Shown in pieces: positions 7,959 to 61,927 of a DNA stretch of 64,000 bases. How positions within the stretch are numbered: the stretch's first letter is position 1; every line of letters begins with the position of its first letter. The stretch is from NCBI GenBank assembly GCA_050014495.1, contig JBEKDF010000004.1, positions 43,939 through 107,938 on the forward strand, given 5' to 3'. A program made the position numbers and the translations under genes. Under the pieces are notes generated by a model. The model made no database searches. It saw nothing but the letters and a program-made list of their open reading frames with translations, and was not told the origin of the DNA. The DNA comes from Candidatus Bathyarchaeia archaeon. Lineage in GTDB: Archaea; Thermoproteota; Bathyarchaeia; TCS64.

Positions 7959-8132
7959 GGTTGAACACTCTGAGAGTCATTGCCCCCATTCCTGGGGGAT
8001 TCACGCAAGGAGATGCGGAGCCCGGTTTAAAGCCTTTCTGTAAAATTTGACGGCTCTTTTCCTTTGGATGATCCACACGGTTTTTAGCCAAGGGCACTTG
8101 TCTAGTGGCGGATTGCGCGCGCCAAATGTTAC

Positions 8133-8417
8133 TTACAGCTTCTTTTTCGAATTTCCTCTCCTATAGTTCAATATCGTTGACGCAGCTATCAGGACCATGA
8201 ACCAGAAGGCTGCATCTATAGCCAGGATGATTAGGTCGACTCTCCATTCGTTGGTTGAGCCCGCTACTGTGCTGAGAATATTTGCTCCCCAAGTGAGGGG
8301 TAATCCGTATCGTACCTCGATTAGGTCCGGTACCGAGTAACCTTGGTTGTATACCAGGGCGAGCGTGCCTATTACTCCAAGGATCAATAGGATTATGGTT
8401 CGAATTCCTATTTTCAT
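8133..8417 (-). CDS. Small two-TM membrane protein
   Basis: Two hydrophobic helices flanking YGLPLTW; basic C-terminal tail. Confidence 0.7.
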   Translation of the reverse strand: MKIGIRTIILLILGVIGTLALVYNQGYSVPDLIEVRYGLPLTWGANILSTVAGSTNEWRVDLIILAIDAAFWFMVLIAASTILNYRRGNSKKKL

Positions 8418-8558
8418 ATTGATCAGTCACTTTACTCCTGATCTTTAATACATATTGTTCTCTAAGAGCGTGCACATGAAGGCGCATGCTTATGAGTATT
8501 CGCTCGCGTGTGCGAGATTCTTTATTTAGTCGCAAAGACCAAAAGGGTCTCGATCAAA

Positions 8559-9068
8559 TTGGATGCGATACAGGTCATTCTTGGTAGGAGAAGCATTCGA
8601 AAGTTCACCGGGGAGACGATCCCTGAAAATGATGTAAAGTTGCTCCTCGAAGCGGCTATGGCGGCCCCCTCAGCCTGCAACCAGCAGCCCTGGCACTACA
8701 TAGTGGTGAAGGATAAGGCCACATTCGATAAGATAACCGAGGCACAGCCCTACACGAGGATGTTGCCTAAGGCCTCCATTGCGGTAATCGTGTGTGCGGA
8801 CCCGAATCTTCAGACCTGTCCAGGTTTCTGGGTTCAGGACTGCTCAGCCTCAACCGAGAACCTGCTATTGGCTGCGCATGCTATGGGTTATGGTGCTACT
8901 TGGTGTGGTATCTACCCCAATGATGATACGGTGTGGAAGATCAGGGAGTTGCTGGGGATCCCTAAGACGGTTTACCCATTGTGTGTTGTAGCTGTCGGAG
9001 TCCCCGACGAGGAGAAGCCGCCAGCTGATAGGTATAATCAAGCTCGTGTGCACACTGAGAAGTGGTGA
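8559..9068 (+). CDS. Nitroreductase family protein
   Basis: RRSIRKF, AAPSACNQQPWHYIVV, QDCSASTENLLLAAHAMGYGATWCG. Probable TTG start at 8559. Confidence 0.92.
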   Translation: MDAIQVILGRRSIRKFTGETIPENDVKLLLEAAMAAPSACNQQPWHYIVVKDKATFDKITEAQPYTRMLPKASIAVIVCADPNLQTCPGFWVQDCSASTENLLLAAHAMGYGATWCGIYPNDDTVWKIRELLGIPKTVYPLCVVAVGVPDEEKPPADRYNQARVHTEKW

Positions 9069-9089
9069 TCCCGCACACGCGAGCTGCAT

Positions 9090-9284
9090 CTAGATTTTGG
9101 CCACGTTTATTGTCTCAGAGGCGAATAAATCCTCCACCTTGAACAGGGATTCAACTAGCCCTTGCTCCGATGAGTAATTGATGAAGGCTTTGAGGATCTT
9201 GCGGTTCGCGTCCAGTTCGTAGGGCCAATAGTTCTGATCCATGATTCATATGGTCTCCTCGAGTTCAGGGATCATCCAAGGCAT
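9090..9284 (-). pseudogene. C-terminal remnant of a 4,5-dihydroxyphthalate decarboxylase-like (substrate-binding fold) gene
   Basis: Manual translation MPWMIPELEETI*IMDQNYWPYELDANRKILKAFINYSSEQGLVESLFKVEDLFASET. It has one internal stop and begins at the GCATGCGCGC tract (9281-9290). Confidence 0.7.
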
Positions 9285-9328
9285 GCGCGCTCGACACACC
9301 TTTAAGTCGGAAAATTAAAGATATCACT

Positions 9329-10189: not shown

Positions 10190-10727
10190 CCACATCAAGT
10201 TCACTAGACTATTGAAGTGCGCGATTTCTATGAACTTTTGTTCTAATTCATCGTCAGCAAGGCTCTTAAGCCCAGGCTAGCTTTGAGCAGTATTCGAGGG
10301 TGGAAATAGATAGGAGTTGCAACCTCCGCCCTTCTTTAAATCGATGGGGCTGAAGAGGCCCCCCAAAACTCGTTTAATATGGATCCTCTTTAGGGCTCCT
10401 TACCATAAGGAGTGTGTGCGTGAGGATCGGTACAAGTCTTAAGTACGCTATGAATCGATCGAATTCTAAACCAGGTGTTCACGAATTGCATAGAATAACC
10501 GCGCTAATACTGGGAATCCTATGATTATCAGCGATCGCCAACTCATTAACCATTCCTAGAGCGTCAAGCGCCAGATCGCGCGCGGATTTTGTCAATTACA
10601 TGAAGAGGACGAGACTCTTGATTTCAAGCGCCCCCGATTGAATTAATCTCAATCAGAGACACTTGTTGGAAAAAAACCATTTAACATTAATGATTGATCC
10701 CTTTAACTAGTCACTAGGTGAGTCAAA

Positions 10728-13818: not shown

Positions 13819-14721
13819 TTAAATAACAACTTGCTCCCCAGGTACTCTTCTGAAAATTTGTACATCACCGACATGGCTAGCCTTTGTCAGGAACCTTACG
13901 AGTCTCTCGATCCCGAAGCCTGCTCCAGCTGAGGGTATAAATCCCTTCTTTGCCTCAGCGACGTAGGCGTCGTATATTCTCATGTTAAGTCTGTCTTTTC
14001 CCATCCTCTCAATGATGCGCTTGTAATCGTATTCTCGTTCCGCGCCGGATAGGGCTTCACCAAATCCCTGTGGGTATACGAGATCGTAGTTCAGGTAATG
14101 ACCGGGATTTGATTCATCCTCCTTATCGTAGAATTCTCTCTTGTGGCATAGAGCCCAGAATGGTTGTTCATTTGCAATCGATGCCTCTTTCTCCCAGTCT
14201 TTACCGTATTTGCTCTCTAATTCATGGGTTGTGTAAACCTTGAATGGTGTTTTGAACTCGAAGGGACGGACACCGATGCTCTCAAAGAGATCAAGGTAAT
14301 TCTTCAGCTTCTCACCTAGAAATTCGAAGTATTTACCCATCAAAGACATCACATCCTCCTTTTTACCATTCGCGATCTCAAAGTCTAGCTGGGTAAACTC
14401 AAACAGATGCTTTCCCGATACTATTCTCTCGGCCTTCTCTAGTCTAATGTTGGGAGAGAAGATGAAGATCTTACCGAGGTTCTTGACGGCAACCTGCTTG
14501 TGTAGAATCATCGAATTCATAGTGTAGAGAAGCATTCCATTGTACTCAATCTCAGGAGTCTTGATTATTGACGATCCTGGATCAGGGCCAAGGGGATCGG
14601 TGCTTCTACCCAGTATGACGGGTAGCAATTGAACAAAGCCTTGTTCGTGGAAGAAGTCCGAAGTAAGCTTTAGTACCGCACTTCCGATCTCGATTCTCGT
14701 TGTTAATTCTGGTACTTGCAT
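13819..14721 (-). CDS. Archaeal asparagine synthetase A (AsnRS-related, lacking the anticodon domain)
   Basis: TDPLGPD, SMILHKQ, SPNIRLE, HLFEFTQLDFE, REFYD, GEALSGAERE, SAGAGFGIERL. Confidence 0.88.
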   Translation of the reverse strand: MQVPELTTRIEIGSAVLKLTSDFFHEQGFVQLLPVILGRSTDPLGPDPGSSIIKTPEIEYNGMLLYTMNSMILHKQVAVKNLGKIFIFSPNIRLEKAERIVSGKHLFEFTQLDFEIANGKKEDVMSLMGKYFEFLGEKLKNYLDLFESIGVRPFEFKTPFKVYTTHELESKYGKDWEKEASIANEQPFWALCHKREFYDKEDESNPGHYLNYDLVYPQGFGEALSGAEREYDYKRIIERMGKDRLNMRIYDAYVAEAKKGFIPSAGAGFGIERLVRFLTKASHVGDVQIFRRVPGEQVVI

Positions 14722-15031
14722 CTAGATCTCAGAAAAACGTATCATCGCTGCATATTAAGATTTATACAATAATATTGGAGTAATTTCATTATAATAGTTT
14801 TTTTCATCATTGGAATTGTAATAAATACAAAAAATGATGCGAAGTTAAGAAACATGTATGGAGGCAAATTAGGATTTTTAATTGCGTTGAACATGTGCAC
14901 ACGAACTGTTATGAAGTTATTATTAGACCTTGTCGCTCACTATTCACAGCGATTATTTTACATGCTTTATTCTATTTTTAAGGGGCGTTCGTGCTTGCGA
15001 CACATGAATTTAGACTAGGTGATGATTGATA

Positions 15032-16135
15032 CTAGACATTGTTGATGATGTGCGAGAAAGCTGCTAGAATAATTGAGGTCATTATTAAGAATAATCCGGA
15101 GATGACCCCTATTATCAAAACGAATGCAGCTGGGAGGCTTAGTGTTTGGAGATTCAGGTATGTGGTGAGTAGGTAAGCTCCGGCGGAGATTCCGATAGCC
15201 AATGCGAATAGACCGGGGAGCCCGAAGAAGAGGTAAGATTTATTCGACATGGTTATTATGAAGCTTTGAGATGTTCCCTGGTCCTTCGGCTTTTCCTGGG
15301 TTTTTGATTGTTGAGTGACTCCTGTTTGGGATATGGGTGCCTCTTCCGTTTGTGTCTCGTAATCGTTTGTATTGAATGGTTCTCTCTGTATCTCGATCGG
15401 GACCTCCCTTAGGATGAGTCCGTTACCGGAGGCTATTCCAAGGATCCTAGAGTGGCTCTCTAGGACTTCTGTGGGGGCTGAGAGGAAGGCTCTTAGGGAT
15501 TTCTGGGAAAACGCCATGAAGATGCTCGGTAGATCATCTTCGTCGACTGTCTCGGATCGATTTGTTCCATTTGGTTGTTGGGTTCCAAAGACCACGTCTG
15601 CCTCTCTCGATTTGATTAGGGAGAGGATCTTCGGTATCTCTGAGGGTTGAAGGTTGGGGTCTACATCCATTATCAGGATCATTGCTGGGTCCAGTTCGAG
15701 TGAGCGTTCAAGGAGGGTTCGGAGTGTCGCGAGGCGTCCGAGGCTGGTCTCGTGTCGGATCACTGTGGCGCCTAGGCCTGCGGCTACTTGCCCCATGAGA
15801 TCTTCGGAGCCGTCATCGCATACTAGAATTCGGTCAAAGTATTGCTTAGATTTGATGATAAGTGGTCCTATCTCCTTCTCTTCGTTGTAGGCTGGGATGC
15901 AGAGAAGGGTTGTGATTGGTTTAATCGGGGGTTGTGGGGAGTGTATCAGTTGAGGCATGTATGTGGCCTCGTTTCTCGCTTCAACCATCTCAACACGTTG
16001 TGATGGGTTCGGAGGAGCCTCCGCTGAGGTTTTTGATTTTTTAGTTACTCGTTTTCTGTCTGGCTTTGAGATTGACTGCATCTTCTTTTTTACTACCTTC
16101 GTTTTAACGAAGTTTAATCCGCTATCTGTGTCCAT
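15032..16135 (-). CDS. Degenerate family-2 glycosyltransferase-like protein with two C-terminal TMs
   Basis: CIPAYNEE, VCDDGSED, VIRH; the usual DADGQH motif reads DVDPNL; low-complexity inserts. Confidence 0.7.
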   Translation of the reverse strand: MDTDSGLNFVKTKVVKKKMQSISKPDRKRVTKKSKTSAEAPPNPSQRVEMVEARNEATYMPQLIHSPQPPIKPITTLLCIPAYNEEKEIGPLIIKSKQYFDRILVCDDGSEDLMGQVAAGLGATVIRHETSLGRLATLRTLLERSLELDPAMILIMDVDPNLQPSEIPKILSLIKSREADVVFGTQQPNGTNRSETVDEDDLPSIFMAFSQKSLRAFLSAPTEVLESHSRILGIASGNGLILREVPIEIQREPFNTNDYETQTEEAPISQTGVTQQSKTQEKPKDQGTSQSFIITMSNKSYLFFGLPGLFALAIGISAGAYLLTTYLNLQTLSLPAAFVLIIGVISGLFLIMTSIILAAFSHIINNV

Positions 16136-16325
16136 GTATTAAACCCCTTAGAATTTCTTTACTGTTGGACCTGATTTTCCCCTAGTTCCATTTACTTGAT
16201 TAGAATAAAATGCATTATGGATATGTAATAGCTAATACGGATTTCAAAATAATGAATTGTATATCATGCGCGCGCGCACGTTGATTATAATTACGTCACA
16301 CAATCTTACTAGAGAAGTTGACCTT

Positions 16326-16571
16326 ATAAGTGCCACCGCAACTACCAAGAAAACCGACTATATCGCTGTGCTAGTCGCTTACATGAGCTTCGTCGTGCTG
16401 GGGATACCAAGCGCGATGCGCGCGCGCATCGGTATAGGTGTCTTTCCCGGCATCGCAGGGGTTCTTGCCGACCGCAGTAGCTTGGAGGCAATACTCTTCG
16501 TATTATTTGCGCTGTCAATCATGATGATGATCTTATACGAGTTGACTATTCGAGCGCATTTGGGGGTGTAG
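16326..16571 (+). pseudogene. MFS transporter remnant: TM1 fused directly to the last two TMs across a (GC)5 palindrome
   Basis: YIAVLVAYMSFVVLGIPSAM | RAR | IGIGVFPGIAGVLADRSSLEAILFVLFALSIMMMILYEL*. The probable start codon reads ATA. Confidence 0.7.
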
Positions 16572-16750
16572 CGGTCATTGAAGGATCGCGTTGATGAGTT
16601 TTAGGATGCGTATACGTGCGCGTAAACTATTACCTCACGTTTACAGGACCCTATATGATAACTCCGAGTTTTTTATATATACCGAGGTTTTCTCCAGTCT
16701 GTGATACGCGCGCGCATTTTATCTATTTGTAGGTGAGGCGCGCGCTCTGC

Positions 16751-17873
16751 TTATGTAGCATATGATAAGTTGAAGGCATTTGTGAGGCTTACTTTCGGTG
16801 TGATGCCATCACTTTTTACGAGGTCCCATGTCCACGACATTGTCCCCTTCCAGCCCCAGAAGTAGGCGGCGTTTACGCCCATGCTGTTGAGTTTAGCAAT
16901 GTGGCCACTCATGTAGTTGGCGGTTACTACGGGTGTGGTCGCGTAGCCATTCCACTCAGTCACATCGACCTTCTTCCCATTGGCGTGAGCCGTGTTGATG
17001 TAACTCTGGAGGTCATTCCACCCTGATCCCCAGACGGTGTAACTTGGGTTCCGGTGGTCTAGATACTCATTCACGAAGGCGACATCGAGGGTGTCAATAG
17101 TCTGTGATGTTGTGAATTTTTTAAGCCCAGAGAGGTCGAATCTGACTCCTACCAATACATCTGGCTTAATAGACTTGACGAATGCTCTCGCATCAGTCCA
17201 TAGCTGGACTGTCTGCGTCTTCTGTGTCGTCGTCATTGTGTATCTTGAGGGCTCATTCAGCACGGAAACGGATTCGATGGGAAGGTCGGATATCTTCTGT
17301 ATTGTATACCTGATCCAGTTGAGATACTGTGTCTTTCCTGATCCGTTGAGGATTAACCTAGTATTTCCTCCCAGATTGGTGGGGGTGGCGAATCCGCTAG
17401 TGCTTGATGGGAAGAGTGTGTGGAAGTCAAGATGGGCCTTGAGTTCGGCTGTAGCGGCGGCTTGTAGGACGTGGCGGAGTTTGGTATATTCGCTGGCGAT
17501 GTAGTTGTCATTTGATGATTCGTAGGTTCCCCAGTAGAGTACCACGCTCACTCGGTCCATTCCCGCTGACTTGAAGAGCTCGAAGTTGGCCGCGAAGCGG
17601 GTTGGTGAGTCTGACTCGTAGTCGGTCCGGTAGTTGACACCGAGGTCAATGCTTGAGTCTGTCGTTTTAATTGGGGTGATCGAGCTCTGCGTGTACACCG
17701 CCTTTAGAGTGTGAGATGAGCCCATTGTTATATAAATTGGGTTCAAGCTCACTGCGTTGTCCCCATCCTTGATCCAGTGGTCGAAATGGTACCTAGTAGA
17801 GAGTGTTGCTGTGACTTTTACGCTAGGTCCGCTTTGGTAAGTTCTTACGCCTGTTCCTGGGCTGGTTGAGCCA
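16751..17873 (-). pseudogene. 5'-truncated clan GH-A-like glycoside hydrolase preceded by a partial InlB-B-like repeat
   Basis: VLNEP acid/base and VDVTEW nucleophile motifs. The frame stays open upstream of 17752 as GSTSPGTGVRTYQSGPSVKVTATLSTRYHFDHWIKDG up to the (GC)5 at 17874, with no signal peptide. Confidence 0.7.
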
Positions 17874-18148
17874 GCGCGCGCGCACGTTTAAAATAATAAT
17901 AAAATATTAATATTAAAGGGACAAAATATGTTTAAATTTCATTTATTTGATAATTTCCCATTTTTCACGTTATTTTATTCGCGTGCGTTTGTAATAAGTG
18001 AGCGTGAGTGAATAACTGGGTCAGATTTTATAGTTATCCCCACCATCTCACGTTGGTCTTCCCAAGGCGTTCGGGCAAATGTATCCAGTGAGAATCTTTA
18101 TCCAGCTGTGCTTGTGTGGTAAGTCGGGTAGTCTTCTATAAGCATTTT

Positions 18149-19929: not shown

Positions 19930-20676
19930 TTTGTTTCGTTTATAAAATGTTTTATGAAAAAGCCTTTGCTTGTATCAAAAGGGCGCGCCTCTGAGCTAAT
20001 TATGACTTCATCTCCTTACACATCTCCATGATCAATGGGATGAGTTCCCCTAGGTTTGCCCAGTTCCACTCACCTGCACTAAGGTAAATATCCTCATTAG
20101 ACTCTGAAGATATATCCGCACGGTTTCGTATACGTTCTAGGATTTCCTTGGCCTGCTTAGGAGTCATCTTCCATCCCCTAAACTTGTACTATTCTCGAAC
20201 GCACGCTCCGTGGACCCCATGTGAGTGGTAATCCTCCGCATGTGCGACGTGCCATTCCCGTAATAGTCGCAGCAGAATTTTTTACTTCCTGCTTCGCTGT
20301 GTATAACGTTTCGCATGTTTATGCAATCCTTTACTCAAGTAGTCGAGTACCAGTAATTAAGACATCCAAATTCGCCTAAATGCTATTGTATACGCTGTGT
20401 CGGGCCCACAATCTAATCTACCAGACAGCCATATAGCGTGCACGATTTACACATGTATTTTATTTATTGGTGATATCAGTTTCGCGCGCGCATATGGATT
20501 CGAGACTGCGCGCGTGCATGGCCCCCAACCCAATGATTATTCCACTTTCTAATTCTTCCCTTCCTCTACTCATCTAATCTTCGTGCCGCGATGTATCATT
20601 AATCTGGTTTTCAGTATCTACTATTATTATAGCCTTACATTTTCCATTTTGTTTAGATATGGAGAAGAACTGATCT

Positions 20677-20856: not shown

Positions 20857-20914
20857 CTTTGCGCGCGCTGCACATGCACAGAGTTATCTATGATTCCGAA
20901 CATATTCACAGTTA

Positions 20915-22359: not shown

Positions 22360-22552
22360 ATCAATAACACACTTACAGGATTTTCTTATATGTTATATAA
22401 TATGTATACGCGCGCGCCACACCACCACACACCTTTGTCATCCCGGCTAAAACCATAAGCCATCCGAGATCATCATTGCAAAATAGTTAAAGTGAAAGCT
22501 AACAAGGAAAACGTTTAAGACTAACCTGAACCTTTGCCGCCGTCGAATAAGA

Positions 22553-28495: not shown

Positions 28496-28718
28496 GAACT
28501 CACAGCCTAGTTAGAGGATTAATGGATTAGCGTGAAGTGATAAGTTTTCGGCTTCCAAGGAATGCCTCATCCAGATGAGCACCCTTATTTATCATTAAAA
28601 GAGATTCAACGCTCTGCTTCATGGCATGCGCGCGCTCATGGAGGTGGGCGGGAACGCGGGGGTCACATTATTTGCCTAGTTTATCGGGGGGACGATCCCT
28701 GCCTCAAGCGTGTTAGCC

Positions 28719-34749: not shown

Positions 34750-34750
34750 T

Positions 34751-37728: not shown

Positions 37729-37884
37729 CTATTTAAGAATGAACTCTCGCGCGCGGATGGTAAAAAGTTATGTGCGTGCACTTTTTAATAATTGAAACCA
37801 ATGGCTCTGTTTTCTTGATGTATTTCTATCTGGCTTGTCGTGTAGTCGGTGGTCTTTAATTTGGGGTTGAAGTAAAAATATTCT

Positions 37885-38519: not shown

Positions 38520-38776
38520 TTTAAGTCGAATTGGATTCAGCTGTTAGTGTTGATTAAATTTGTGATTACGCGCGCGTGACTGTTTAAGAATGAGATAAAT
38601 TAGTGTTCAATGTTGTGTTCTGTCTTATCACTAAATTTATAATAAATTTATCTAGGCAATAAGGTTCGGCGTCATCCTATGAGGCGATATAGGCAGTTGA
38701 TACGATTAATAAACATGTAATATAAGGAAACAGTCGGTGAATAGTTTTAAGCGTTAAATCCTCTGGCATCGCACCG

Positions 38777-45830: not shown

Positions 45831-46067
45831 AAAGAGAATGATGCGCGCTTGGGATTAAGCGTGCGTCTGCAGCTTTCCTCCTGAATGAGGACCCGTGCGT
45901 GCATACGATGATTTAAAGAATCGATTGACTGAGGTAGAGTTGTGGTCCGATGGCTAGGTTTTTGAGGTATAAGGTTGTCGGCGCGCGCGCAATCCGCGGT
46001 TACCTTTTTTCGTCGAATAGGTTTACGAGTCGATAGTCTAATGATTTAACTTAACGTGGGTTAAGAT

Positions 46068-46856: not shown

Positions 46857-46931
46857 AATAGCCCGAACTCAATGGAGCGTTGATTCGGATACTGTTCAGT
46901 CTTTTGTCACGGCTGCTTGGAGGAGTAGCTA

Positions 46932-47246: not shown

Positions 47247-47280
47247 TTTACTCCCTTTTTAAAAAAAGCTTTTATGGTAA

Positions 47281-48033
47281 ATGACAAATAAGAAAAAACA
47301 CGGCAATTCTAACGGATGAGGAAAAGCAAGGGATACGCGCAAGAGCCAATATAATTGTTGGTAACAATGAGAGTTTAAAAAATAAGGAAATTGAATTACA
47401 AGCAGCATTGCGAATAATAGAGAAACTGCTAGGAATAAACTGGTATAGCAAGGCCTGGGAAAACAATTCTACATTTCGCGCGCGCGAACGATAAACATCC
47501 CAAAACTTCCAGAGAAATCAACAGTCGTCCAATACTCCGAAGAGACTTACCAAATGCGTGACTCTTATCCCATAGATGTCAATATAATGTCTAAAATCTG
47601 GGCGAGAGAGATTGATTTACCAGTCTCTAACTATAGGCGAGTAGTGATTTATTCACCATTTATGGCAACTAAATCTCAAAGCGTCTTGCACTCCATTGAG
47701 GACGCAAGTAATCAACTTCTGAAATCAAGCGGGTATGGTATTGTGGCGATTGACATATCAGACATCTTGCGTACTAAAGAAGATGAAGAAAAAATTCAAA
47801 AAGAGCTTTCTGAGGTTGTCAACTGTTTATCTGAGCGGTTTGAGAGTATGCCTCATGTTAGTGCGATATTGTTCTTTTTTACACAAAGAATCATGAAAGA
47901 TGAACATATTAAGCTATTCACTAAGATTTTAATGTGTTCAAATCTTTTAGCAACCCACAGATTACCTCCTGATATGAAGGAAGCTTTGAAGAAGGGCGGA
48001 GAGATTGGTTATAAGTCCTTGCTTGACGAATAA
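47281..48033 (+). pseudogene. Broken gene: N-terminal fragment joined out of frame at (CG)5 to a C-terminal fragment resembling a PD-(D/E)XK nuclease tail
   Basis: ...RIIEKLLGINWYSKAWENNSTF | CGCGCGCGCG | INIPKLPEKSTVVQYSEETYQMRD...IEDASNQL...GIVAIDIS. Confidence 0.5.
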
Positions 48034-48465
48034 TATTTTCTTGTCGCTTCTAGACGTTTACGTGTCCTTTGATTGTTTTCTCCCATTCAGATTGTGTTAG
48101 TACACCTTTCTTTTCCAGTAGTTCTACAAGGCGCGCGCGCATTGGGGTTATAAGGACTCATCATTTTCTTCTTGGTTTTCGTCTTGTATACGCACTTATT
48201 GTAACAACCCGTCTTTCCCCGCCTTTTTTACGCCTTTTATAAGAACTGATTTTTTTCGGCATTGGTTAACCAATTTACTAATTATATAAGCCATTATTTA
48301 GCTTTGTTCTGTGTTTCATTTCCAAAAATGGCCCATTTTAATTTTATAAAGCTATAATAGCTATATTATGATAAGATATGTTGTATAACAGAATGATTTA
48401 GAGTAATAGCTATTTAAAATACATAACTACTTTACATAAACCTATTATTAATGTATGCATAATAA

Positions 48466-49203: not shown

Positions 49204-49351
49204 GTCGAAGTAAAGCTACCTTTGAGATTAAAAATACCTTTGGTGAAAATTTCTAGGCTTGAAAGTTTAAACACCCATGACAAATAACTTAACAGTATCG
49301 TTGATTCGTATCCCTTAAATAGCTATTAACAGTTGGAGTAGATGATATAGT

Positions 49352-49831: not shown

Positions 49832-49853
49832 CACTGCGGTTAGGAGGCCATTC

Positions 49854-51135: not shown

Positions 51136-51220
51136 GAATAGGTAGTTTGTATCAATCCCCTTATAAATATTATAAAAAGGTTTATAATATTAGGGGAATA
51201 CTCCATATTTAGGTGCGATA

Positions 51221-52657: not shown

Positions 52658-53136
52658 CCTTCAACACCGTGAGGAAGGCCCTGGACGAGCTCGACGCGGT
52701 CGCGACCCATGACAAACTTGTCACCGACGTTGGGAAGCTACAGAAACAGAGCCAGCAGCGGGGGAAGGATATCGATCAGCTTCGCTCCGAGTTATTTAGG
52801 GTGGAGGACGAGATCAGTAAACTTCGGGCCAAGGCTAACCTTAAGGAAGTGGAGATTCAGAGGCGAGCGCAGATCCTCGCTAACAGCCTGGTGAGCCGGT
52901 GGCATGCTGAGGAGAAGCCTTGGGTCGTCGCATCCGCCGTCGAGGAGGAGATTAAGGGTTATCCCTCGCGCTGCTCAGCCTCGACCAAAGTGGTGGTGGA
53001 TGCGAGGGTTGATGTAGTCGTCCAGGAGAGACTCAAAGAGGGGTGGACCCCAATCGTCCTAGCGGTTTCAAATATAATAAAAGCCTCAACTAATCGCGAG
53101 GCCGGTGGGAAAAGCGACGGTAATAAGTGTCAGTAA
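52654..53136 (+). CDS. Coiled-coil hypothetical protein, possibly 3'-decayed
   Basis: ATGA overlap with the upstream gene. Confidence 0.6.
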   Translation: MTFNTVRKALDELDAVATHDKLVTDVGKLQKQSQQRGKDIDQLRSELFRVEDEISKLRAKANLKEVEIQRRAQILANSLVSRWHAEEKPWVVASAVEEEIKGYPSRCSASTKVVVDARVDVVVQERLKEGWTPIVLAVSNIIKASTNREAGGKSDGNKCQ

Positions 53137-53236
53137 ACCCGAAGAACCCAAGAAGAAAACCTCTCCGTAATTAATCGGGTGTATTCCCTTTTGTTACGGG
53201 TGTGCGGAGCTCGCACGCGGTTCAACATTTATTTTT

Positions 53237-54943
53237 TTACACGATATTGGCTAAGCTTCTCAGCTGGTAGGCGATGAGACTGAGGGATATGAAGATGGGT
53301 ATGATGGTCTTCAGATCCCTGTCCTCCGTCTTCTGGAAGACCATGAGGCCCATTGCTGCAAGTAATCCCCACGGGTAATTGTAGAGGAACCTTTTCTTCA
53401 CATCCATGTCGACGAGGAGGTATCCAATAGTGGTAGTGAATAGGAAGGATGTGAGGAAAATTGCCGGGATCTTTCTTAATTTAGTTATGATGATGCCAAC
53501 GGCTGCGAGTGTGAGGAGGAGCAGGTTGGCCAGGAGTCCGCTGTAGTAGAACTGGGAGTTGTAGGTGCTTGGGAGTATGTCGTCTAGTGTGGTGATTCCA
53601 CTGGTGAAGGTTTTGAACGCGTCGAAGCCTCCGACAAATTGCGGTGCTAGTTGGGTTGCTCCCAGGATTAGTATGGCTCCGATTATCGCTAGGCGGGAGA
53701 GGGTCTTGATCTGCTTAGACTCTGATGTGATTGCCAAATAGACGATGAGGGGTGCGAGTGCTGCGGCGTATTGTATGAAGGTCCAGGGGTGTGTTAGCAG
53801 AAGGAGACCCATAAACAGGGCAGATGAGATGAGTTGTTTCCAATCGTTGAGGCGGATGCCTCTGAAGAATAGTGTTAGGGCGAGGAATGTGAAGGAGAGC
53901 CCAAGCATGTCTGTGAGGAAAAATGAGTACATGCCGACGACGATGTGGAACCCGGCTACCGTGAAGAATGAGGCCCAGAGGGCGTAGGCGTCATCCTGCA
54001 GCACCTCACGTGATAGGAAGAACACCGAGATGACTAGAATTGGAGCGATTAGTATGGGGATTAGATTCACTACCGCGAGGTTACTGAGTCCGAAGAGCCT
54101 CTGAAATGCTTCGAGTACCAGGAAGAATAGTGGCCTGGAACCGTCATTCGCATTGAAGATCGTCAGTGTCCCATTGTTAATCCCACCGAGATCACTAACA
54201 TATTGGCTGACATCGGTACCAACGTTGTTGTTCTGTGGATTTATACCTGGGAGACTCGGGTACAGAACCGAGAAAACCGTGAACACGATAATTAGGGATA
54301 AGTAAAGGAGGATATTCCTCGATTTGCTGGTGGGGATATTTTCTTCTGATTGAACTATGCTCGTTTTGTTCCGCCAGAATAATCTGACTGGTGCGATCAA
54401 CGAGGCACATATGATTGCAATGAGTACTATGATGGATAGGGGGCTGGTTAGGAAGAATATCACCTCGTCGAGATTCACGAGATTCGCCAATGGAAACGCT
54501 ATCTGTAGAGGCGCGAAGACCAACCAGTAGACAATAGCGGTTAGCTCAACAGCTGAGAGTGCGGCTAATATCCAAAACAATGTTCGCCTAGCATTCTTGA
54601 AGGAGACGATCCCTACCAAGAAGGATGCGAGGGAGACAATTGAGACGGTTAATGCAAAGCCTAGTATTGGGAGTAAAATCAGTCCGAGCAGAGGCAGTAT
54701 TGAGTATTGTTTTTTCTTCGTAAATATGAGGATCGTTGAAACGATGATTAGTATAATCAGGGGTATCGTGAGATCTAAACCTAGACTCAGGCCAGAGTCA
54801 AACCATACCCTATGCTCCATCAACTGAATGGTGAGTCCAAGTGATGATACTAGTTGTAGTGTAGTTAGGATACTCTGAGTCACGAAGAGGGACAATGAGA
54901 AATTGTCTAAGCTGATCTTAGCCTTCATTCGCACTAACTTCAC
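53237..54943 (-). CDS. Polytopic membrane protein, GT-C/oligosaccharyl-transfer-like
   Basis: About 15 TMs, luminal GTDVSQY...SRPLFF, LLTHPWTF, KRFLYNYP; lies in the glycosylation cluster. Confidence 0.65.
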   Translation of the reverse strand: MKLVRMKAKISLDNFSLSLFVTQSILTTLQLVSSLGLTIQLMEHRVWFDSGLSLGLDLTIPLIILIIVSTILIFTKKKQYSILPLLGLILLPILGFALTVSIVSLASFLVGIVSFKNARRTLFWILAALSAVELTAIVYWLVFAPLQIAFPLANLVNLDEVIFFLTSPLSIIVLIAIICASLIAPVRLFWRNKTSIVQSEENIPTSKSRNILLYLSLIIVFTVFSVLYPSLPGINPQNNNVGTDVSQYVSDLGGINNGTLTIFNANDGSRPLFFLVLEAFQRLFGLSNLAVVNLIPILIAPILVISVFFLSREVLQDDAYALWASFFTVAGFHIVVGMYSFFLTDMLGLSFTFLALTLFFRGIRLNDWKQLISSALFMGLLLLTHPWTFIQYAAALAPLIVYLAITSESKQIKTLSRLAIIGAILILGATQLAPQFVGGFDAFKTFTSGITTLDDILPSTYNSQFYYSGLLANLLLLTLAAVGIIITKLRKIPAIFLTSFLFTTTIGYLLVDMDVKKRFLYNYPWGLLAAMGLMVFQKTEDRDLKTIIPIFISLSLIAYQLRSLANIV

Positions 54944-55138
54944 GATCCGTTCATCAATGAGACCTACGACTTTATTCGCAACTCATAACATAAGATTATC
55001 CCCTTATCGTTTATAGAGAACGTGCGCACTCGAGGATGTTTAATCTCTTTCAGGATCGGATTTAATTTATCTACTTGAGTCGTTAGCTATCTTGTCGTTA
55101 TTTAGGGTGGATTTAAGCTGTCTGAGGATTCTTCGGAG

Positions 55139-56320
55139 TTGATGCGTGGTTCGGCCCGGGGTAGCCTGGTCTTGATGGTGGGGCAGGTGGTCACCACCCT
55201 CATCTCCGCCGTCACCGTCATCTGGATGGCGCGTTTCCTCGGCTCAACGGCTTACGGGGAGTACACGATCGCCCTGTTCCCCGTCTCCATTGCACTTCTC
55301 TTCCAGGACCTCGGCATGAACGCGTCTCTGACGAGGTTCTGCGCCATGTACAGGTATGAGGGGCGGAACGATGAGCTCAAGTCGGTTGTTGTGACGGGGC
55401 TCGTCTTCAGCATCGTGACTTCTCTGGTTATCAGTGGGCTCATGATTATCTTTGCTGGGCCCATCGCCACAATCTATCTGAAGCGGCCGGAGATCGAGCC
55501 GTTGGTCAGGGCTGCGGCGCTTGCTGTTCTGGGTGGCGGGGGCCTACTCACAACGATTCAGGCCATCCTGGTTGGGTATGAGATAATGAGCCTGATGAGC
55601 TTTACCCAGATCCTCTGGTCCGCAACGCGCACGTTACTCAGCGTCGTTTTGCTGCTGGTCGGTCTCGGAGCCTTCGGAGCAGTGTTGGCCAACACCGCCT
55701 CCCAGGTAGTCGCTGGTTTAGTCGGCGTACTCCTTCTCTATATCTTCATAAAGTTCGAGAAGGGCTCCAAGGGGGGCTTTGATTTTGGTATGCTCAGGAC
55801 CTTCCTCGGCTATGGGTTACCCTTGTCGATGAGCTCGCTACTAATCGGCGTCCTGAATCAGATCTACAATTACATCATGGTCCTCTACGTCGCGACGGAC
55901 CTCATCGGCAACTATGGCGCGGCTAGCAGCTTCGGCGTACTCCTCTCCTTCCTCACGGTCCCAATAGCTACATCTCTCTTCCCACTCTACAGTAAATTCA
56001 AGAAGGATAGTCCACAGCTGAAGAGGATCTTCCAGATGTCGGTGAAGTACACGGCGATAGTGACCCTACCCGTCGTGTTAGTAATTATTGTTGTTGCTTC
56101 CCCCCTGTCGAGGTTATTGTATGGGGCGAGTGATTACCCGTATGTACCCCTGTATCTCAGCATATTCATCTTGAACTATTCTTTTGAGGGACTAGGTGGC
56201 ATGTCTCTGAGTAACCTCATATCCGGCGTGGGCGAGTCAAGGACCACCCTCTTGTCGAGCATCTTTACCTTCTTCACTGGGATCAGCTTAATGCTCGTTT
56301 GCGCGCGCGCGCACGCCTAA
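55139..56320 (+). pseudogene. Wzx/MOP-family polysaccharide flippase truncated at (GC)6
   Basis: ARFLGSTAYGEY, QDLGMNASLTRF, IGNYGAA, LFPLYSK. Ends abruptly ...GISLMLV-CARAHA*, missing the last TMs. Confidence 0.8.
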
Positions 56321-57457
56321 GGGGAGACTCTCAGCCTTGATGATCGATGACCCCTCCAATGTCCACGCAGGAACGTTGATGGTGGTCACGAATGTACCAC
56401 CCTCAGCAGAGACCAGGGGGGTGACTGAGCCAAACGCAGCCAACTCCAGAGCCATCCCACCCAAGGGGATGCTTCCATTGCTGATCATCCCCGACACCGT
56501 GAAGGACTTCCCGGGGTAGACCTCATCTGGTAAACTCAACTTTATGCCGGGAGTAAACCAAATTAAGCCAACTTGGACGATGTTGGAGGCTGATGGGAGG
56601 TAGACTCCGACATCCGTTCGTGAGGGCCAATACTCCGCCGAGACCGAGACATAATCCTTGTATAGGAACGGCAGATCGAATCGCCATGTGAACCCCCCAT
56701 ACGAATCCGTTCTCAGACGGGTGAACACCCTCCCATCTACGTACACCGTAACGACCCTCATCTGAACCGGATTGCCAGACGAATCAGTTAGGATCCCACT
56801 GAGCTCCACCTCGGAGCCCAGCAGACCCTTCGAGGGGGTCACCTCAATGCTGACCTGAGTCCTCATGGCGCTGCTCTGAACGGGGTTCTTGATGGCCTCA
56901 GACTGACCCTGAAGAACCTTAATCTCCTCAAGCTGCTTCAGAATCAGCGCCGAGACCTCATCACTTCCGGACAATAACTTCGAAGGAGACCCCTTCAGAG
57001 ATTGACCAAGTGTAACTGAATAGGACCTCAACTCACCGAGCGTGGTGTTCGAGTCGTGGAGCTCCGAGAGCGCCACCTTAATCAAACTATCAGCGTCAGA
57101 GACCCTCAGATGCTGAAGGTACCCCCTGATGAGGTCAATATCAGCCCGGGTCAAGTTCAGGCTACCAATCTCTCGCCCGAGCAACTCATGATAATTTCCA
57201 AGGGTGGCATTCAGGCCGCCCGGCGCGTAAACGAGCTTGGCCCAGCCGAGCCAGCTGAGTGCACTCGGGTAGTTCTCAGCCGCGGTTGTGTTGAAGATGA
57301 CGCCGTAGAGATCAAATAGAGTAGTCGCATCTGGGGGCTGCGGCCCGAACGTGTTCGGATCCTGGTGCCTAGGCAGCTGCTGAGCCAAAGCAATCGGCAT
57401 GAAGGCCTGCAACAAGAAGCACACACAGACGAAGGATGCTTTCAGAACCGCTCTCAT
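56288..57457 (-). pseudogene. Secreted helical plus Ig-like protein of the DUF1616 cluster, truncated at the same (GC)6
   Basis: Signal peptide, PRHQDP, helical bundle, Ig-like domains. Ends mid-domain ...ESLPLGV-RARANEH*. Confidence 0.7.
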
Positions 57458-57738
57458 AGGAGGATCTCCAGGACCTTCACCGAGACTATGAGGCAGAACG
57501 AGACGAAGAGCACGCCCCCGACCAAGTCAAAGAAACGCCTCCTGGGCTTGAACAGCGCAGAGCAAGCAAAGTAGCACACCGTGAAGAGGCTGACGTAGAC
57601 CTCAATCCTCCACTCATCCAGAGCTGCGAGGCTCACCGTCGTGAGCACGATGAGGAACGCGAGCGAGACGACGAAGACCTTGTGCCTATCCAAACTAATC
57701 AAAAACCTTGAAGGAGGAGATGGTGGTCTTCCTCCCAC
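57454..57738 (-). CDS. Small 3-TM membrane protein
   Basis: EVYVSLFTVCYF...FKPRRR; overlaps its neighbours in an operon. Confidence 0.7.
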   Translation of the reverse strand: MGGRPPSPPSRFLISLDRHKVFVVSLAFLIVLTTVSLAALDEWRIEVYVSLFTVCYFACSALFKPRRRFFDLVGGVLFVSFCLIVSVKVLEILL

Positions 57739-58468
57739 TCAGATCCTCGTTAACCAGCGCAACCGGCTTCCCCAGCACAGAGGCGAGGATGCAACCCGCT
57801 ATACTCGTGGGCAGCGAGCCCAGGACCAACTCAAACCTCGGGAACCTCGTCTCCACCCTGGCCCCAGACATCTCAAGAATGTACCTATCACCCGACCTCA
57901 CGGCCTTCACCGACTCAACCGCCTCAAGGAAATCCACGAGGATGTAGGATAGGGCCTCGTCGACGCTGGAGTCCTTCTCCAGGGACGCGATCCTGACGAC
58001 CTCCGACCCCGGTGGGAAGATCATCAGCGCCCTCCCCCCACCGGCGTCGCTGAAGACCCTTATCGGAGCTGCCATCGCGGCCGAGACCCCCTCATACCCG
58101 GGATTCGCCGAGAGGGGAGCGTAAGCGTATATAAGCCCCTGCCTCGGGGGCAGATACACGGCCCTCCACCTCGCGTCGAACTCCTCCAGAAGAGCCTCGA
58201 CGTTGAGGCACGAGCCCTCAACCATGGCCCAAACTGTCTCCTTCGGCACGGGGCTCGAGGGAATAAGCATCAGCGTCGAACCGATGATGAGGCAGCCCAA
58301 GCCGAGTGCCGAAAGAGGCGTGTTAAGCAGCACGAAGTAGGCGAAGAGGGCGAAGGGGACGCCGAATACGACCAGGAGAAGCCCAAGTCCAGTGTATCGG
58401 TCAAGCATCCTATCGAGAGGACTCAGCTCAGGCCCTCCGAGCGAGTTGAGCCAGCCGCCAGTAGCCAT
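57695..58468 (-). CDS. Two-TM membrane protein with soluble C-terminal domain (DUF1616-cluster associated)
   Basis: NVEALLEEF...AVYLPP, FPPGSE, LGSLPTSIAG. Confidence 0.7.
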   Translation of the reverse strand: MATGGWLNSLGGPELSPLDRMLDRYTGLGLLLVVFGVPFALFAYFVLLNTPLSALGLGCLIIGSTLMLIPSSPVPKETVWAMVEGSCLNVEALLEEFDARWRAVYLPPRQGLIYAYAPLSANPGYEGVSAAMAAPIRVFSDAGGGRALMIFPPGSEVVRIASLEKDSSVDEALSYILVDFLEAVESVKAVRSGDRYILEMSGARVETRFPRFELVLGSLPTSIAGCILASVLGKPVALVNEDLSGRKTTISSFKVFD

Positions 58469-59093
58469 ATTTCCGATAAACACCCACAACCCCGAGGACC
58501 ACCGTCAACGCCGCCAAAGAGACGAGCGCGGGGTCGAGCCGAATCCCCCAGGGAGTGTAATTAAGCACAAGCCCCACGAGTGGCACAACGGCTATGCTCA
58601 ACCCTACACTCAACGCGAACCTCTCGAGCCTCTCAAGCTCATCCCTCTTCGAGTAAAGGGCCTCAATCAGAGTGTAACCCGGCACGTAGAGGATTAAGAT
58701 GGCGCCAGCCACCATCCTAAGATAGTAGAGTGGGTAGACCTGAGGCATCAGGTAGATCGAGTAGAGCAGAAGTGCAATGAACGCCAATACCCCCCAGAAC
58801 CAGCCACTGTAGCTGAATGAGAAGAACCCCACGAAACCCGACGGCGGGGAGGGATCCACGAACCTAACCTTATCCTCCATAATCGCCCTGTAAACCCCAC
58901 GCGACGCCTCCTCCATCGAGACATGCCGCTCAGACGAGATCTTCCCAACCAGCTCACCCACCTCACGCCCCGAGCCGGCGACGACGTCCCCCTCCAGGAG
59001 GTTAGGCTCCTCGACCTCCTCCTCGAGCTCGGGCTCCTCAACCTCATCACCCGAGCCCAGCCTATCCCGAAACTTATCCAAAATAGAAGGCAA
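58428..59093 (-). CDS. DUF1616 domain membrane protein
   Basis: YVPGYTLIEAL...LERFALSVGLSIAVVPLVGLVLNYTPWGIRL. Confidence 0.85.
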   Translation of the reverse strand: MPSILDKFRDRLGSGDEVEEPELEEEVEEPNLLEGDVVAGSGREVGELVGKISSERHVSMEEASRGVYRAIMEDKVRFVDPSPPSGFVGFFSFSYSGWFWGVLAFIALLLYSIYLMPQVYPLYYLRMVAGAILILYVPGYTLIEALYSKRDELERLERFALSVGLSIAVVPLVGLVLNYTPWGIRLDPALVSLAALTVVLGVVGVYRKYGYWRLAQLARRA

Positions 59094-59101
59094 GACTCAA
59101 C

Positions 59102-59587
59102 CTAACCCGTCAAAGTGACGTTTAACCAGAGCTGCGTCCACCGCTCATCATACACGAATCCATGAGAGGCGAGGTCATACTTCCACAGCTCTAAGACGAG
59201 CCTCCTGTTCAAACCCGCGGAATCCATACTCACCCTAATCGGAATGGTGTTGTTTCCCTCGCTCGGTAGAACCGTCTCCCAACTCGCCCTCACCGACGCA
59301 TCCAGTGGAACCACATCACTGACGTTACTATTCTGATCCCCAACCTTCTCCACGACCCGGTAATACTCACATCTCCCCTCGTGGTTACCAACGTAGATGA
59401 AGAGGTCGAAGCCCTGACCAACCGCGACCTCACGTGTATAGTTACCGAGCTTCCCCGTCGGCCCAAGGATCCCTAACTCGGAGAAGGGCTCAACGATCCT
59501 CCCCTCACTAATCACCGGGTAGACCGATATGACCGCTGACGCGAGGAGGATGATCAGCGCCACGGCCTTGAACTCGTCATCAATCAT
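59102..59587 (-). CDS. DUF1616 C-terminal-like extracellular domain protein
   Basis: EPFSELGILGP, VGNHEG, RLVLELW, QLWLNVT. Confidence 0.8.
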   Translation of the reverse strand: MIDDEFKAVALIILLASAVISVYPVISEGRIVEPFSELGILGPTGKLGNYTREVAVGQGFDLFIYVGNHEGRCEYYRVVEKVGDQNSNVSDVVPLDASVRASWETVLPSEGNNTIPIRVSMDSAGLNRRLVLELWKYDLASHGFVYDERWTQLWLNVTLTG

Positions 59588-59596
59588 TGCGCTCGA

Positions 59597-60803
59597 CCGT
59601 TCTCCAAAACTTATCCATCTAGGACATCTCCCGAATGGCGTTTGGTTCCTGATTCACAGAGTCGGCTTGCATCACAGTTGCCTCAGTAGCGGCCAACTCT
59701 CCACAGGCGTTTAACGTCTCCCTGAAACTCAGGGCGACTGCTTCCAGATTCCTAGCAGCGTTCAAATGTCTGCTCATTGTATTTCCACAGTCACAGGTAT
59801 AGATTTCCTGACCAAGTGGAATCTCATTTATCTTCCCGCACTCACAGCACTTCTTCGTGGACGGGAACCACCTGTCAGCAACCACTATTCTCGATCCATA
59901 CCACTTTGCCTTATACTCCAACTGCCTCCTGAACTCCCCGAAACTGGCATCCGATATGGCTTTTGCCAGCTTGTGGTTCCTCACCAAATTCTTCACAGCC
60001 AAATCCTCCACACCAATTACTGACTTGGTTTTCGTCAGCATTGTTGTGGCTTTGTGCTGTGCATCACCACGAATGTCAGCTATCCTATTATGAATTTTTG
60101 CTACTCTCTGCCTCGCCTTGTTCCTGTTGCTGCTTCCTTTCCTCTTCCTCGACAGGCTCATCTGGAGCCTCTTCAGCTTCCTCTCATTCCTTCTGAGTGC
60201 CTTTGGATTGGCAAATTCTGTTTTATCGCTCACCACAGCCAGTGGAGCAATGTTGAGATCGACACCGACCACAGGACCGTTGTTCTCTGGGACTTTGATT
60301 TCCTCCCTCACGAGGACTGACACAAACCATCTTCCTGCCTTCTCAGAAACTGTTGCGGAGAGGATATGTTGATCTATAGGAAGGTAATTTCTTTCCTTTA
60401 ACCTAACGTCACCGATTCTCGGTATCTGGATTCTGTCTGAACTAACCTTTGTATAGGAGAATGTGAATGAACCAGCACCGTTCTTCTTGGATTTGAATGT
60501 CGGATGTCCAGAAACGCCTTTGAAGAACCTCTGGTAGGCGACCTCCAAGTCCCTGAGTGCTTCCTGCGGGCAGCACTTTGAAACTTCCAGCATCCACGGA
60601 AACTCCGTCCTCTTGATGCCGTTCAGTTCTCTCCGCAGGGCAAGGCAGGTGGAAGACTTGCCAGTCTGCTCGAACTGCTCCTGCATCTTGGCAAGACCCC
60701 AGTTGTAGGCGAAGCGTGCCGTGCCAGCGGACTTGAGGAGGAGAGTCCTCTGGACGTTGTTGGAGTCCAACTCTGTCTTATATGCTTTCATCTGCGCGCG
60801 CGA
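59597..60803 (-). mobile_element. Decapitated IS607-like element: tnpB and right end only; left end and tnpA absent
   Basis: The right end reads ...AAGTTTTGGAGAACGG. Removing 59597-60803 restores TGG AGG GTC GAG CGC AAT GAT TGA (WRVERND*), overlapping the next ATG. Confidence 0.7.
59619..60791 (-). CDS. tnpB: RNA-guided endonuclease TnpB, 390 aa, with RuvC-III Asp replaced by His
   Basis: KAYKTELD...ARFAYNWGL, VGVDL, VEDL, FRRQLEYKA, FPSTKKC-x2-CG, SRHLNAARNL. Confidence 0.92.
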   Translation of the reverse strand: MKAYKTELDSNNVQRTLLLKSAGTARFAYNWGLAKMQEQFEQTGKSSTCLALRRELNGIKRTEFPWMLEVSKCCPQEALRDLEVAYQRFFKGVSGHPTFKSKKNGAGSFTFSYTKVSSDRIQIPRIGDVRLKERNYLPIDQHILSATVSEKAGRWFVSVLVREEIKVPENNGPVVGVDLNIAPLAVVSDKTEFANPKALRRNERKLKRLQMSLSRKRKGSSNRNKARQRVAKIHNRIADIRGDAQHKATTMLTKTKSVIGVEDLAVKNLVRNHKLAKAISDASFGEFRRQLEYKAKWYGSRIVVADRWFPSTKKCCECGKINEIPLGQEIYTCDCGNTMSRHLNAARNLEAVALSFRETLNACGELAATEATVMQADSVNQEPNAIREMS

Positions 60804-61182
60804 CCCTCCAACCACTGTGAGTCCTGAGCCACAGCCCCCAGAACCACCGGGAGCCACGGGTATACACGGCCACACCGAGGGCAGCGATGACGATGAGTAC
60901 TCCCGCTACAACTATGAGACGACTCGTAATCCTCAGACTACCCTGGGTTTCAGCGACGGGCGCCTTAGCAAGCACGTCGTCGAGCGTCGACTTGTAGGTC
61001 GCAAGTGAATCGGGGGAAGCCCCAGGTAGCTTACGGGCGATATCATCAAGCTGAGAAACCAAAGCCGTCACATTTCCGCCTGCGACCTCCGCCTTAGCAA
61101 CGGCCTCGTAAGCGGTAGCCAGCTCAGTCCTAACATCGGACTCAGTCAAAGCCGAAACCACCGGAACACTGGAGAGCACCAC
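60778..61182 (-). CDS. Secreted/membrane helical protein of the DUF1616 cluster, with 3' end altered by the IS
   Basis: AYEAVAKAEVAGGNVTALV, C-terminal TM, WRV. The frame with a signal-like stretch is open to about 61224. Confidence 0.75.
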   Translation of the reverse strand: MVLSSVPVVSALTESDVRTELATAYEAVAKAEVAGGNVTALVSQLDDIARKLPGASPDSLATYKSTLDDVLAKAPVAETQGSLRITSRLIVVAGVLIVIAALGVAVYTRGSRWFWGLWLRTHSGWRVARADESI

Positions 61183-61220
61183 GACCAGCAGCAGTACCGC
61201 AATAACCCGAGTACTACTCG

Positions 61221-61589
61221 CTACGACTGATAGATCCTCCAGCCAACCGGCTGATTATAGTCGAGGAACATCAAGTACCTGATGAAACCAAGGTCCCCCG
61301 AAAGCGCCTCAGCGCCACGATAACCCAGGCTAACCGCCTCCCTCTGAACCACACGAACCCTCTCAACCCCATAACGCTCCAGGTGCCGCACAAACCCCGA
61401 CTTACAGGCGTCCCTGAGCTTCGCAATGATCCTCACTAACTGAACATTCAGCACTGTGCTCTTGACGTCGTCTATGATCCTAGCCGAGATCGATAGGATC
61501 CCCCTCTCAAGCCCATCAAGCGCGCTGTACCAGACACGCCTACGAAGCGCCTGCCGCCTGACCCCCGAGAGGAACTCCCCCGTGAACAA
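61221..61589 (-). CDS. Archaeal hypothetical protein
   Basis: ALRRRVWYSALDGLERGIL...A.SLGY...FIRYL. Confidence 0.7.
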   Translation of the reverse strand: MFTGEFLSGVRRQALRRRVWYSALDGLERGILSISARIIDDVKSTVLNVQLVRIIAKLRDACKSGFVRHLERYGVERVRVVQREAVSLGYRGAEALSGDLGFIRYLMFLDYNQPVGWRIYQS

Positions 61590-61927
61590 GTTGAGAAGAA
61601 CCCACCTACACCAATTATTCCTATGTAAGAAACAAAGTACGTTAAATGGCTTTATATCATCTTCTTAACAACGATAAGTATCAATAATAAGAAACAATTG
61701 TTAGTTTAAAATGGGTTCAACATTGAATATGATTAAAAATAAATCAGACATAGCCGAAAAACACACTAGAATCATCTTACTATCTGCCCGCGTTTGATAA
61801 TGCCCTCGAATAGCATAGCCCTCTCATCTATGAGAAGGTCGACAAACATTGAAACTAGAACCGCGCGCGCGTTGGAGACCAACATCTGTTAATAGTTTTA
61901 CCTACCGAGTAATTATTTGGAACTCTC

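Follow-up and report, generated by a model that had tools for sequence, protein, structure and literature searches.

Alternating GC tracts in the window and its genome

We analyzed a 64,000-nucleotide stretch of DNA from a Candidatus Bathyarchaeia archaeon (hereafter, the window), which belongs to contig C4 of G000, an archaeal assembly of 3.1 Mb, and for which the matching public sequencing runs were mostly peat metagenomes. Dispersed between its genes, and at the ends of several gene fragments, are short, perfect alternating C/G runs, herein termed GC tracts, and those of 8-10 bp are probably filler that was written at deletion or rearrangement junctions. Specifically, 19 runs of at least 8 bp were located between positions 8115 and 61871 (seven of 8 bp, four of 9 bp, seven of 10 bp, and one of 12 bp; Table 1), while Markov simulations of the window (60 runs per order) gave means of 0.6 (order 1) and 1.8 (order 3), with a maximum of 5. 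The recount and the simulations bore out the initial annotation, which had reported 19 runs of 8-12 bp where one or two were expected.

Table 1. GC tracts and associated features of the window, with positions counted from its first letter. The last column marks tracts spanned in contigs from other public runs, followed by the run or strain where named.
Feature	Position	Strand	Observation	Bridged
(GC)4 tract	8115..8122		left-flank homology stops here; three sister genomes read on without tract	yes (X4, X13)
(CG)4 tract	10577..10584		C52 paralogue ends here	yes
Interval deleted in strain X13	14389..17089		inserted GCGCGC; run totals 8 with parental C and G	
(GC)5 tract, left end of 140-bp gene remnant	16268..16277		G011 orthologue without tract	yes
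Gene remnant with tract at each end	16278..16417		74-76% identity to G011 and G016	
(GC)5 tract in place of ~970 bp	16418..16427		parents contribute only GC per side (G016, G011)	yes
9-bp tract, intergenic	16707..16715		no parent found	yes
(GC)4 tract, intergenic	16738..16745		no parent found	yes
Interval deleted in strain X12	17441..17959		inserted CGCGCGCG; run totals 10 with parental G and C	
(GC)5 tract, gene fragment broken off	17874..17883		tblastx homology to L009 stops at tract	yes
9-bp tract, intergenic	20483..20491			yes (X4, X9)
(GC)4 tract, intergenic	20861..20868			yes (X4, X9)
9-bp tract	22409..22417		C24 paralogue, without tract, ends here	yes
(GC)4 tract, intergenic	28628..28635		no parent found	
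(CG)4 tract, intergenic	37748..37755		no parent found	
(CG)4 tract, intergenic	38569..38576		no parent found	
(GC)5 tract, intergenic	45981..45990		no parent found	
(CG)5 tract	47477..47486		reading frame stops just beyond; no parent or homologue found	yes (X17)
(GC)5 tract, intergenic	48131..48140		no parent found	
Polysaccharide flippase, truncated at tract	55139..56320	+	~387 aa vs 514 aa in paralogue	
(GC)6 tract, two convergent reading frames both ending across it	56301..56312		C83 paralogue reads on without tract	
9-bp tract, 2 bp 5' of likely TnpB start codon	60794..60802		neighbouring reading frame runs into tract; weak homologue support	
(CG)5 tract	61862..61871		98%-identical C52 parent has one base in common with tract	

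Across G000 as a whole we identified 459 such runs, of which 192, 144, and 111 had lengths of 8, 9, and 10 bp, respectively, and 12 were longer, with GCGCGCGC being the commonest 8-mer. Run lengths ended abruptly near 10 bp. Only 13 of the 459 tracts were placed within open reading frames (ORFs) of at least 200 aa, the interiors of which comprise 61% of bases. Sequence logos of the flanks were flat, the sole motif being a T ahead of runs that start with G. Additionally, the shorter GGCGCGCC was over-represented in G000 (36 vs 12.6 expected), as were the decay forms GCGTGC and GCACGC, an excess that is consistent with shorter or aged scars.

Tracts coincide with breaks in homology and are mostly missing from parental sequences

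In a self-BLAST of G000, ends of high-scoring segment pairs (HSPs) fell at 100 of the 459 tracts, as compared with 13-30 at six offset controls, and a single tract was crossed by HSPs (1/459), as compared with 69-87 crossings at the controls. With unrelated flanks, flat logos, and this near absence of crossings, the tracts do not form a miniature inverted-repeat (MITE) or repetitive extragenic palindrome (REP) family, in agreement with the initial annotation of the window. At the level of individual window tracts, homology ended at the tract on one side at 8115, 10577, 16268, 17874, 22409, 56301, and 61862. For the five tracts that the initial annotation had placed exactly where a recognizable gene breaks off, the outcome was mixed: the junction at 16418 was corroborated from both sides and those at 17874 and 56301 from one, while homologues lent weak support at 60794 and none were found for 47477. 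The remaining window tracts likewise had no usable parent.

Parental sequences were sought as paralogues with at least 16 of 20 positions identical beside the tract, which provided 90 flanks unrelated to insertion sequences (ISs). The parental sequence extended into the tract by 0 bases in 35 of these flanks, by 1 base in 33, by 2 in 12, and by more in 10, and a GC hexamer within one mismatch was present in 10 of the 90 parents. These alignments favor the suggestion that the tracts are repair scars carrying self-complementary filler from an end-joining polymerase, in that the filler is missing from both parental ends. The proposal of an endonuclease cutting at GCGC or GCGCGC followed by fill-in fails, since it requires the site in the parents, and 80 of the 90 flanks overlap the tract by no more than 2 bases. 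In the case of the third proposal, that pre-existing Z-DNA-prone tracts act as fragile sites, the parents lack the tract and the idea fails as an origin, but existing tracts do appear to be reused, based on a 1.4-kb event and approximately six one-sided shared tracts (see below), as well as on IS targeting.

When 143 anchored ends were compared with their parents, identity was 0.74-0.80 across positions -6 to -1, fell to 0.59 at the first tract base, and was at chance level (0.24-0.32) further in. In this test for G:C microhomology the first tract base was parental above chance (0.59 vs 0.28), and the second base had no overall excess. We infer that, at about two thirds of ends, the last parental base is a G or C that begins the run.

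We also made a colinear comparison that added stretches of sister genomes, which gave 12 rows; the junction property was examined in five genomes, G000, G002, G016, G021, and the distant G103 (described below). The rows comprised eight distinct deletions of 44-970 bp, in the first four of these genomes, at which a tract was present and the corresponding parental interval had no run of at least 8 bp (one deletion being listed twice), and at least three of the eight fell inside transposase genes. Two further rows were shared tracts that differed by a point change. The remaining row was a 1.4-kb loss or gain bounded by two identical 9-mers: in G002 (L085:1300-2724), a 434-aa ORF lies between two identical 9-bp tracts, while the corresponding place in G000 (C51:4494-4502) carries a single tract and lacks the gene. 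This difference is a cassette-like loss or gain.

Such cases bring forward an alternative in which tracts are rarely made, and an existing tract instead behaves as a protected or recombining end that acquires new neighbours on one side and then the other, or else is duplicated through templated insertion. Approximately six tracts were shared with a relative on one side only, which is in keeping with this scenario, as is the exact loss or gain between identical 9-mers. Tracts were also clustered in G000, with 21% of gaps being <500 bp vs 7% expected, and both of the strain deletions reported below include an older tract. However, one-sided sharing was rare (9/153 anchored ends), and the deletions in transposase genes, as well as replacements of 3, 9, and 44 bp, had no tract in the parental interval. 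Moreover, propagation leaves the origin of the 8-10-mers, and their excess over 6-7-mers, unaccounted for, and we consider it improbable.

Junctions that differ between strains

Public runs, which were compared as contigs and not as raw reads, contained two strains approximately 99% identical to the window, each with a deletion relative to it (Table 1). In strain X13, position 14389 was joined to 17089 through GCGCGC on a 24-kb contig with a depth of 33, and in strain X12, 17441 was joined to 17959 through CGCGCGCG on one contig with a depth of 5. The inserted letters were present at neither end in the window sequence, and parental C and G bases lengthen the runs to 8 and 10, respectively. The gene interrupted by the X13 deletion is complete in the window and has a match in G016, and X13 is therefore the derived form. 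Two more joints in X13 had 41 and 3,543 unseen letters in between, and a read overlay of positions 44000-63999 exposed no joints, at thin coverage.

Contigs of other public runs, coming from different years and habitats, bridged 11 of the window tracts, which bears on the concern raised with the initial annotation that spanning reads might be lacking. The tracts are not an artefact: apart from being bridged, they are present in the single-contig genomes G021 and G103, their phase differs among species, point changes have degraded some of them in paralogue pairs, and they carry IS insertions. The predominance of even-length runs starting with G in both G000 and G103 would suit a restriction cut with fill-in, pre-existing Z-DNA fragile sites, or an assembly or library artefact. 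Given the parents without a site, and the observations just listed, we regard the chance that any of these produced the tracts as close to negligible.

IS1182-like elements insert at the tracts

G000 contained many copies of an element, herein called IS1182-like, that encodes DUF772 and DDE_Tnp_1 domains, is bounded by terminal inverted repeats, and duplicates its target. Full-length copies were flanked by GCGCGC at each end, a pattern that fits duplication of a 6-bp target, and the variants seen at identical IS copies indicate that the hexamer is derived from the target. The family (L001:2603-3903, corresponding to G000 C5:82602-83902, and L012-L040) had several terminal-repeat types, all of which target GCGCGC, and some copies were nested within the end of a second IS.

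These elements raise the question of whether the tracts are simply their target sites and excision scars, as would be in line with the placement of 55 of 70 terminal-repeat-like ends next to an alternating run of at least 6 bp and with the GCGCGC on both sides of full-length copies. Viewed from the tracts, however, IS ends accounted for 28 of 918 tract sides in G000. The statement that tract flanks show no terminal repeats therefore stands for the 19 window tracts, where none were recognized, but not genome-wide, because these 28 sides adjoin IS terminal repeats. In addition, the element requires a GCGCGC target, which is missing in 80 of the 90 parents, and a 6-bp duplication cannot yield 8-10-mers. 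DUF772 had no match in tract-rich G103 (searched as a whole genome), G110, or G190, while two of the five genomes searched did match, and G103 had no repeated flank. With few tract sides being IS ends, the target lacking in parents, and neither DUF772 nor repeated flanks in G103, an IS origin of the tracts fails and is very improbable; the IS1182-like element uses the scars rather than making them.

Distribution of tracts across genomes

Within the genus, a 10-mer starting with G was present in 15 of 17 members, with none in G001 and G010. Across 251 genomes of the class, A/T-flanked 8-mers had a patchy distribution, ranging from 0 to 166 copies in raw counts with no control for GC content, and the phase bias was often strong (e.g., 166 vs 7). 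Outside of the class, at least ten flanked 10-mers were present in five of 222 genomes, again as raw counts with no GC-content control. Three of these five belong to a single genus (g102), the other nine members of which had 0-2. The three (G260, G288, and G316) had many A-GCGCGCGCGC-T sites, like G103. From these raw counts we selected, by hand, 34 tract-rich and 41 tract-poor genomes for profiling.

G103, which is from a distant family and consists of one contig with 40% GC, had 356 tracts across the 1.58 Mb of its 1.98 Mb that we examined. There was no repeated 12-bp flank among its 710 tract sides. HSP ends fell at 21 of the 356 tracts (vs 1-10 at controls) and crossings numbered 7 (vs 24-39), and its junctions included tracts in place of 3, 9, and 945 bp. 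In this genome an A was located ahead of the run and was non-parental at 9 of 17 ends.

Candidate enzymes

The initial annotation had called for correlating tract abundance with Ku, LigD, and PolX, among others, and neither Ku-LigD nor PolX fitted. A complete Ku-LigD operon encoding Prim-Pol, Ku, and a ligase fused to a 3'-phosphoesterase was located in G000 (C3; L041:4207-7464), and also in G016 and tract-free G001; such a complete operon is rare in archaea. Ku was detected in three of eight tract-rich genomes searched (G000, G016, and G116) and was not found in the other tract-rich genomes of that search, G021, G103, G110, G161, and G139, of which G021 and G103 are single-contig genomes. We rejected Ku-LigD as the writer based on the full operon in G001 and on Ku not being found in these five tract-rich genomes. 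Both Ku and the IS are dispensable for the tracts. PolX was present in 18 of 34 tract-rich and 14 of 41 tract-poor genomes. Of the 21 tract-rich genomes outside the family, 16 yielded no PolX.

Several other candidates were likewise set aside. Reverse transcriptase (PF00078) and PolY (PF00817) were found in none of the five genomes searched, extra copies of archaeo-eukaryotic primases (AEP) had no pattern with tracts, and a 439-aa PriS-like primase adjoining AglB/STT3 (L044:4048-5367) had full homologues in 4 of 17 genus members. A Pol-beta-type nucleotidyltransferase of approximately 350 aa was present in 66 of 76 genomes and does not follow the tracts, while NurA was present in all five genomes searched. 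G000 itself had three NurA homologues (C2, C9, and C35), two of which are in HerA-Mre11-Rad50 operons.

A proteome intersection between G000 and the examined 1.58 of 1.98 Mb of G103 gave 859 reciprocal best hits, of which 365 were low-copy and soluble; 141 of the 365 were scanned with NCBIfam, 41 of those also with Pfam, and the rest were assessed by eye from their N-termini. Within this screened subset of low-copy, soluble proteins with at most 58% identity from 80% of G103, no new polymerase-like candidate emerged.

PriS was intact in both G000 (PriS and PriL at C1:125087-127611) and G103, with DxD, SGxRGYH, and HRLIR motifs and with PriL adjacent. Primases typically start with a purine and make products of 8-10 bases. 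Based on the elimination of the other candidates and on published end joining by G:C annealing, the replicative primase PriSL is the best candidate for the writer.

The same filler scars might alternatively be written by PolB2 together with its RadA-like partner (G000 C8:32877-36029), acting as a proofreading-free extender that would slip where two ends pair over 1-2 bp of G:C. PolB2 is common to G000 and G103, and its homologues were present in 26 of 34 tract-rich vs 16 of 41 tract-poor genomes (Fisher p 0.002, with kin not independent). A re-query recovered a second PolB in three further tract-rich genomes and in all three tract-rich g102 members, in a tally that is biased because the re-query covered only some genomes. 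Dpo2 is reported to extend mispaired termini (PMC8764526). Nevertheless, tract-free G001, G010, G058, and G091 also have PolB2, as do five of the nine tract-poor g102 genomes. Moreover, it was not found in G099 (96% complete) or G005 (92%), and in tract-rich G016 it is frameshifted into pieces (C21:144145-146243). This reading is distinctly unlikely. If the tracts are indeed written at junctions, PriSL and an unrecognized enzyme each have somewhat less than an even chance of being the writer, and PolB2 is an unlikely one.

A proposed route to the scars

Considering the junctions and the candidates together, the filler probably derives from Ku-independent double-strand-break repair, with PriSL as the candidate that would add self-complementary (GC)n tails that then anneal. 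In such a pathway, resection at a break would remove between 0 and a few thousand bases, and a 3' end, ideally ending in G or C, would be extended with alternating G and C. This extension could combine terminal transfer with repeated re-annealing of the two ends via 2-4 G:C pairs. Because alternating GC is self-complementary, the same tail on both ends would always pair; the tails would anneal, after which gaps would be filled and ligated. Any two tailed ends would fit, potentially allowing fragment capture and the joining of unrelated DNA. Existing tracts may later provide the microhomology through which genes are lost or gained, for which we have one case, and as targets of IS1182-like elements, for which the insertions are in evidence.

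Several observations weigh against this account, in part or in whole. The parents in the colinear cases were 74-91% identical and hence are not direct ancestors, and 9 of 41 anchored flanks in G103 shared the tract with a paralogue. The intervals lost from strains X13 and X12 each include an older tract, which could have been copied or carried over, and the X12 joint, on its one contig with a depth of 5, has 57 bases on its short side. In terms of length, there were 5 11-mers vs approximately 69 expected under blunt ligation of a 10-mer, implying that the cap counts parental bases or that longer runs are removed. PriS was present in 74 of 75 profiled genomes, including tract-free ones, while the tracts are patchy, and an alignment of PriS from two tract-rich and six other genomes showed no separating feature. 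Lastly, the end joining described for PriSL gives mostly 1-2-bp indels, while here the filler is 6-10 bases and losses span 3-2,699 bp.

We also considered whether a dedicated, patchily distributed archaeal enzyme mends broken ends by writing the self-complementary repeat (A)GCGCGCGC at a counted length without a nucleic-acid template, which we view as tentative and rather doubtful. If true, it would constitute a universal linker for any two ends, driving accessory-genome shuffling in Bathyarchaeia, and the IS family would be exploiting this linker as a safe landing site.

Relation to known systems

Saccharolobus PriSL has terminal transferase activity, joins ends via 2-4 G:C pairs, and acts in Ku-free break repair (PMC12019639; PMC3333859), with approximately 85% of repair products being 1-2-bp indels, with single C insertions (PMC12019639). 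These reactions, termed primase-promoted microhomology end joining (pp-MMEJ) or PADT, share with the junctions herein their independence from Ku and their G/C-biased insertions, and the optional terminal transfer and the G:C annealing of two 3' ends would be shared under the proposed route. A stereotyped alternating filler of 6-10 bases is not reported for PriSL in the sections consulted (PMC12019639; PMC3333859).

Ku-LigD non-homologous end joining (NHEJ), as in bacteria and Methanocella paludicola, likewise joins ends with possible untemplated additions, and its operon is in G000, but Ku and LigD are not present wherever the scars are. Additions by LigD are of one to a few bases. Fillers made by TdT, Pol mu, and Pol theta are non-parental and GC-rich at deletion junctions, and are random or copied from nearby DNA; the scars, in contrast, are a single self-complementary dinucleotide repeat with a length cap. 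The IS1182 family accounts for the IS-flanking runs only. HIP1 of cyanobacteria, DNA uptake sequences, and REP/MITE elements are over-represented short palindromes that are found inside conserved genes or are framed by conserved arms, whereas the scars avoid genes (13/459), have flanks unrelated to one another, and show no conservation at orthologous sites. Thus, the scars resemble end joining with nucleotide addition, are outside of Ku-LigD NHEJ, IS footprints, restriction fill-in, and HIP/REP, and depart from pp-MMEJ in the product. A literature survey, judged by titles and the beginnings of abstracts, returned no account of (GC)n junction filler in archaea.

By what means the majority of archaea mend double-strand breaks in the absence of Ku is stated to be an open question (PMC12019639), and the scars would provide a genomic record of this repair, both countable and datable, for a group that is abundant and uncultured. 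They mark every past rearrangement, predict an exact in vitro product in the form of (GC)4-5 tails, and host an IS family specialized on host repair scars. If true, a writer of self-complementary linkers would represent a new polymerase chemistry and a possible tool for cloning or library construction.

Other features of the window

Beyond the tracts, the window encodes TnpB (Cas12f-like; 59619-60791), with no adjoining transposase. An Rfam scan of the window returned nothing besides a DUF3800-X RNA (48471-48542), which is located next to a DUF3800 gene (48547-49203). The gene at 13819-14721 encodes a class II tRNA-synthetase core without the anticodon domain and is truncated in strain X13. 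Finally, a repeat of approximately 40 bp near the right end of the window (~63852-63893) had many copies in G000 and sister genomes, and contigs from other runs had loose ends there.

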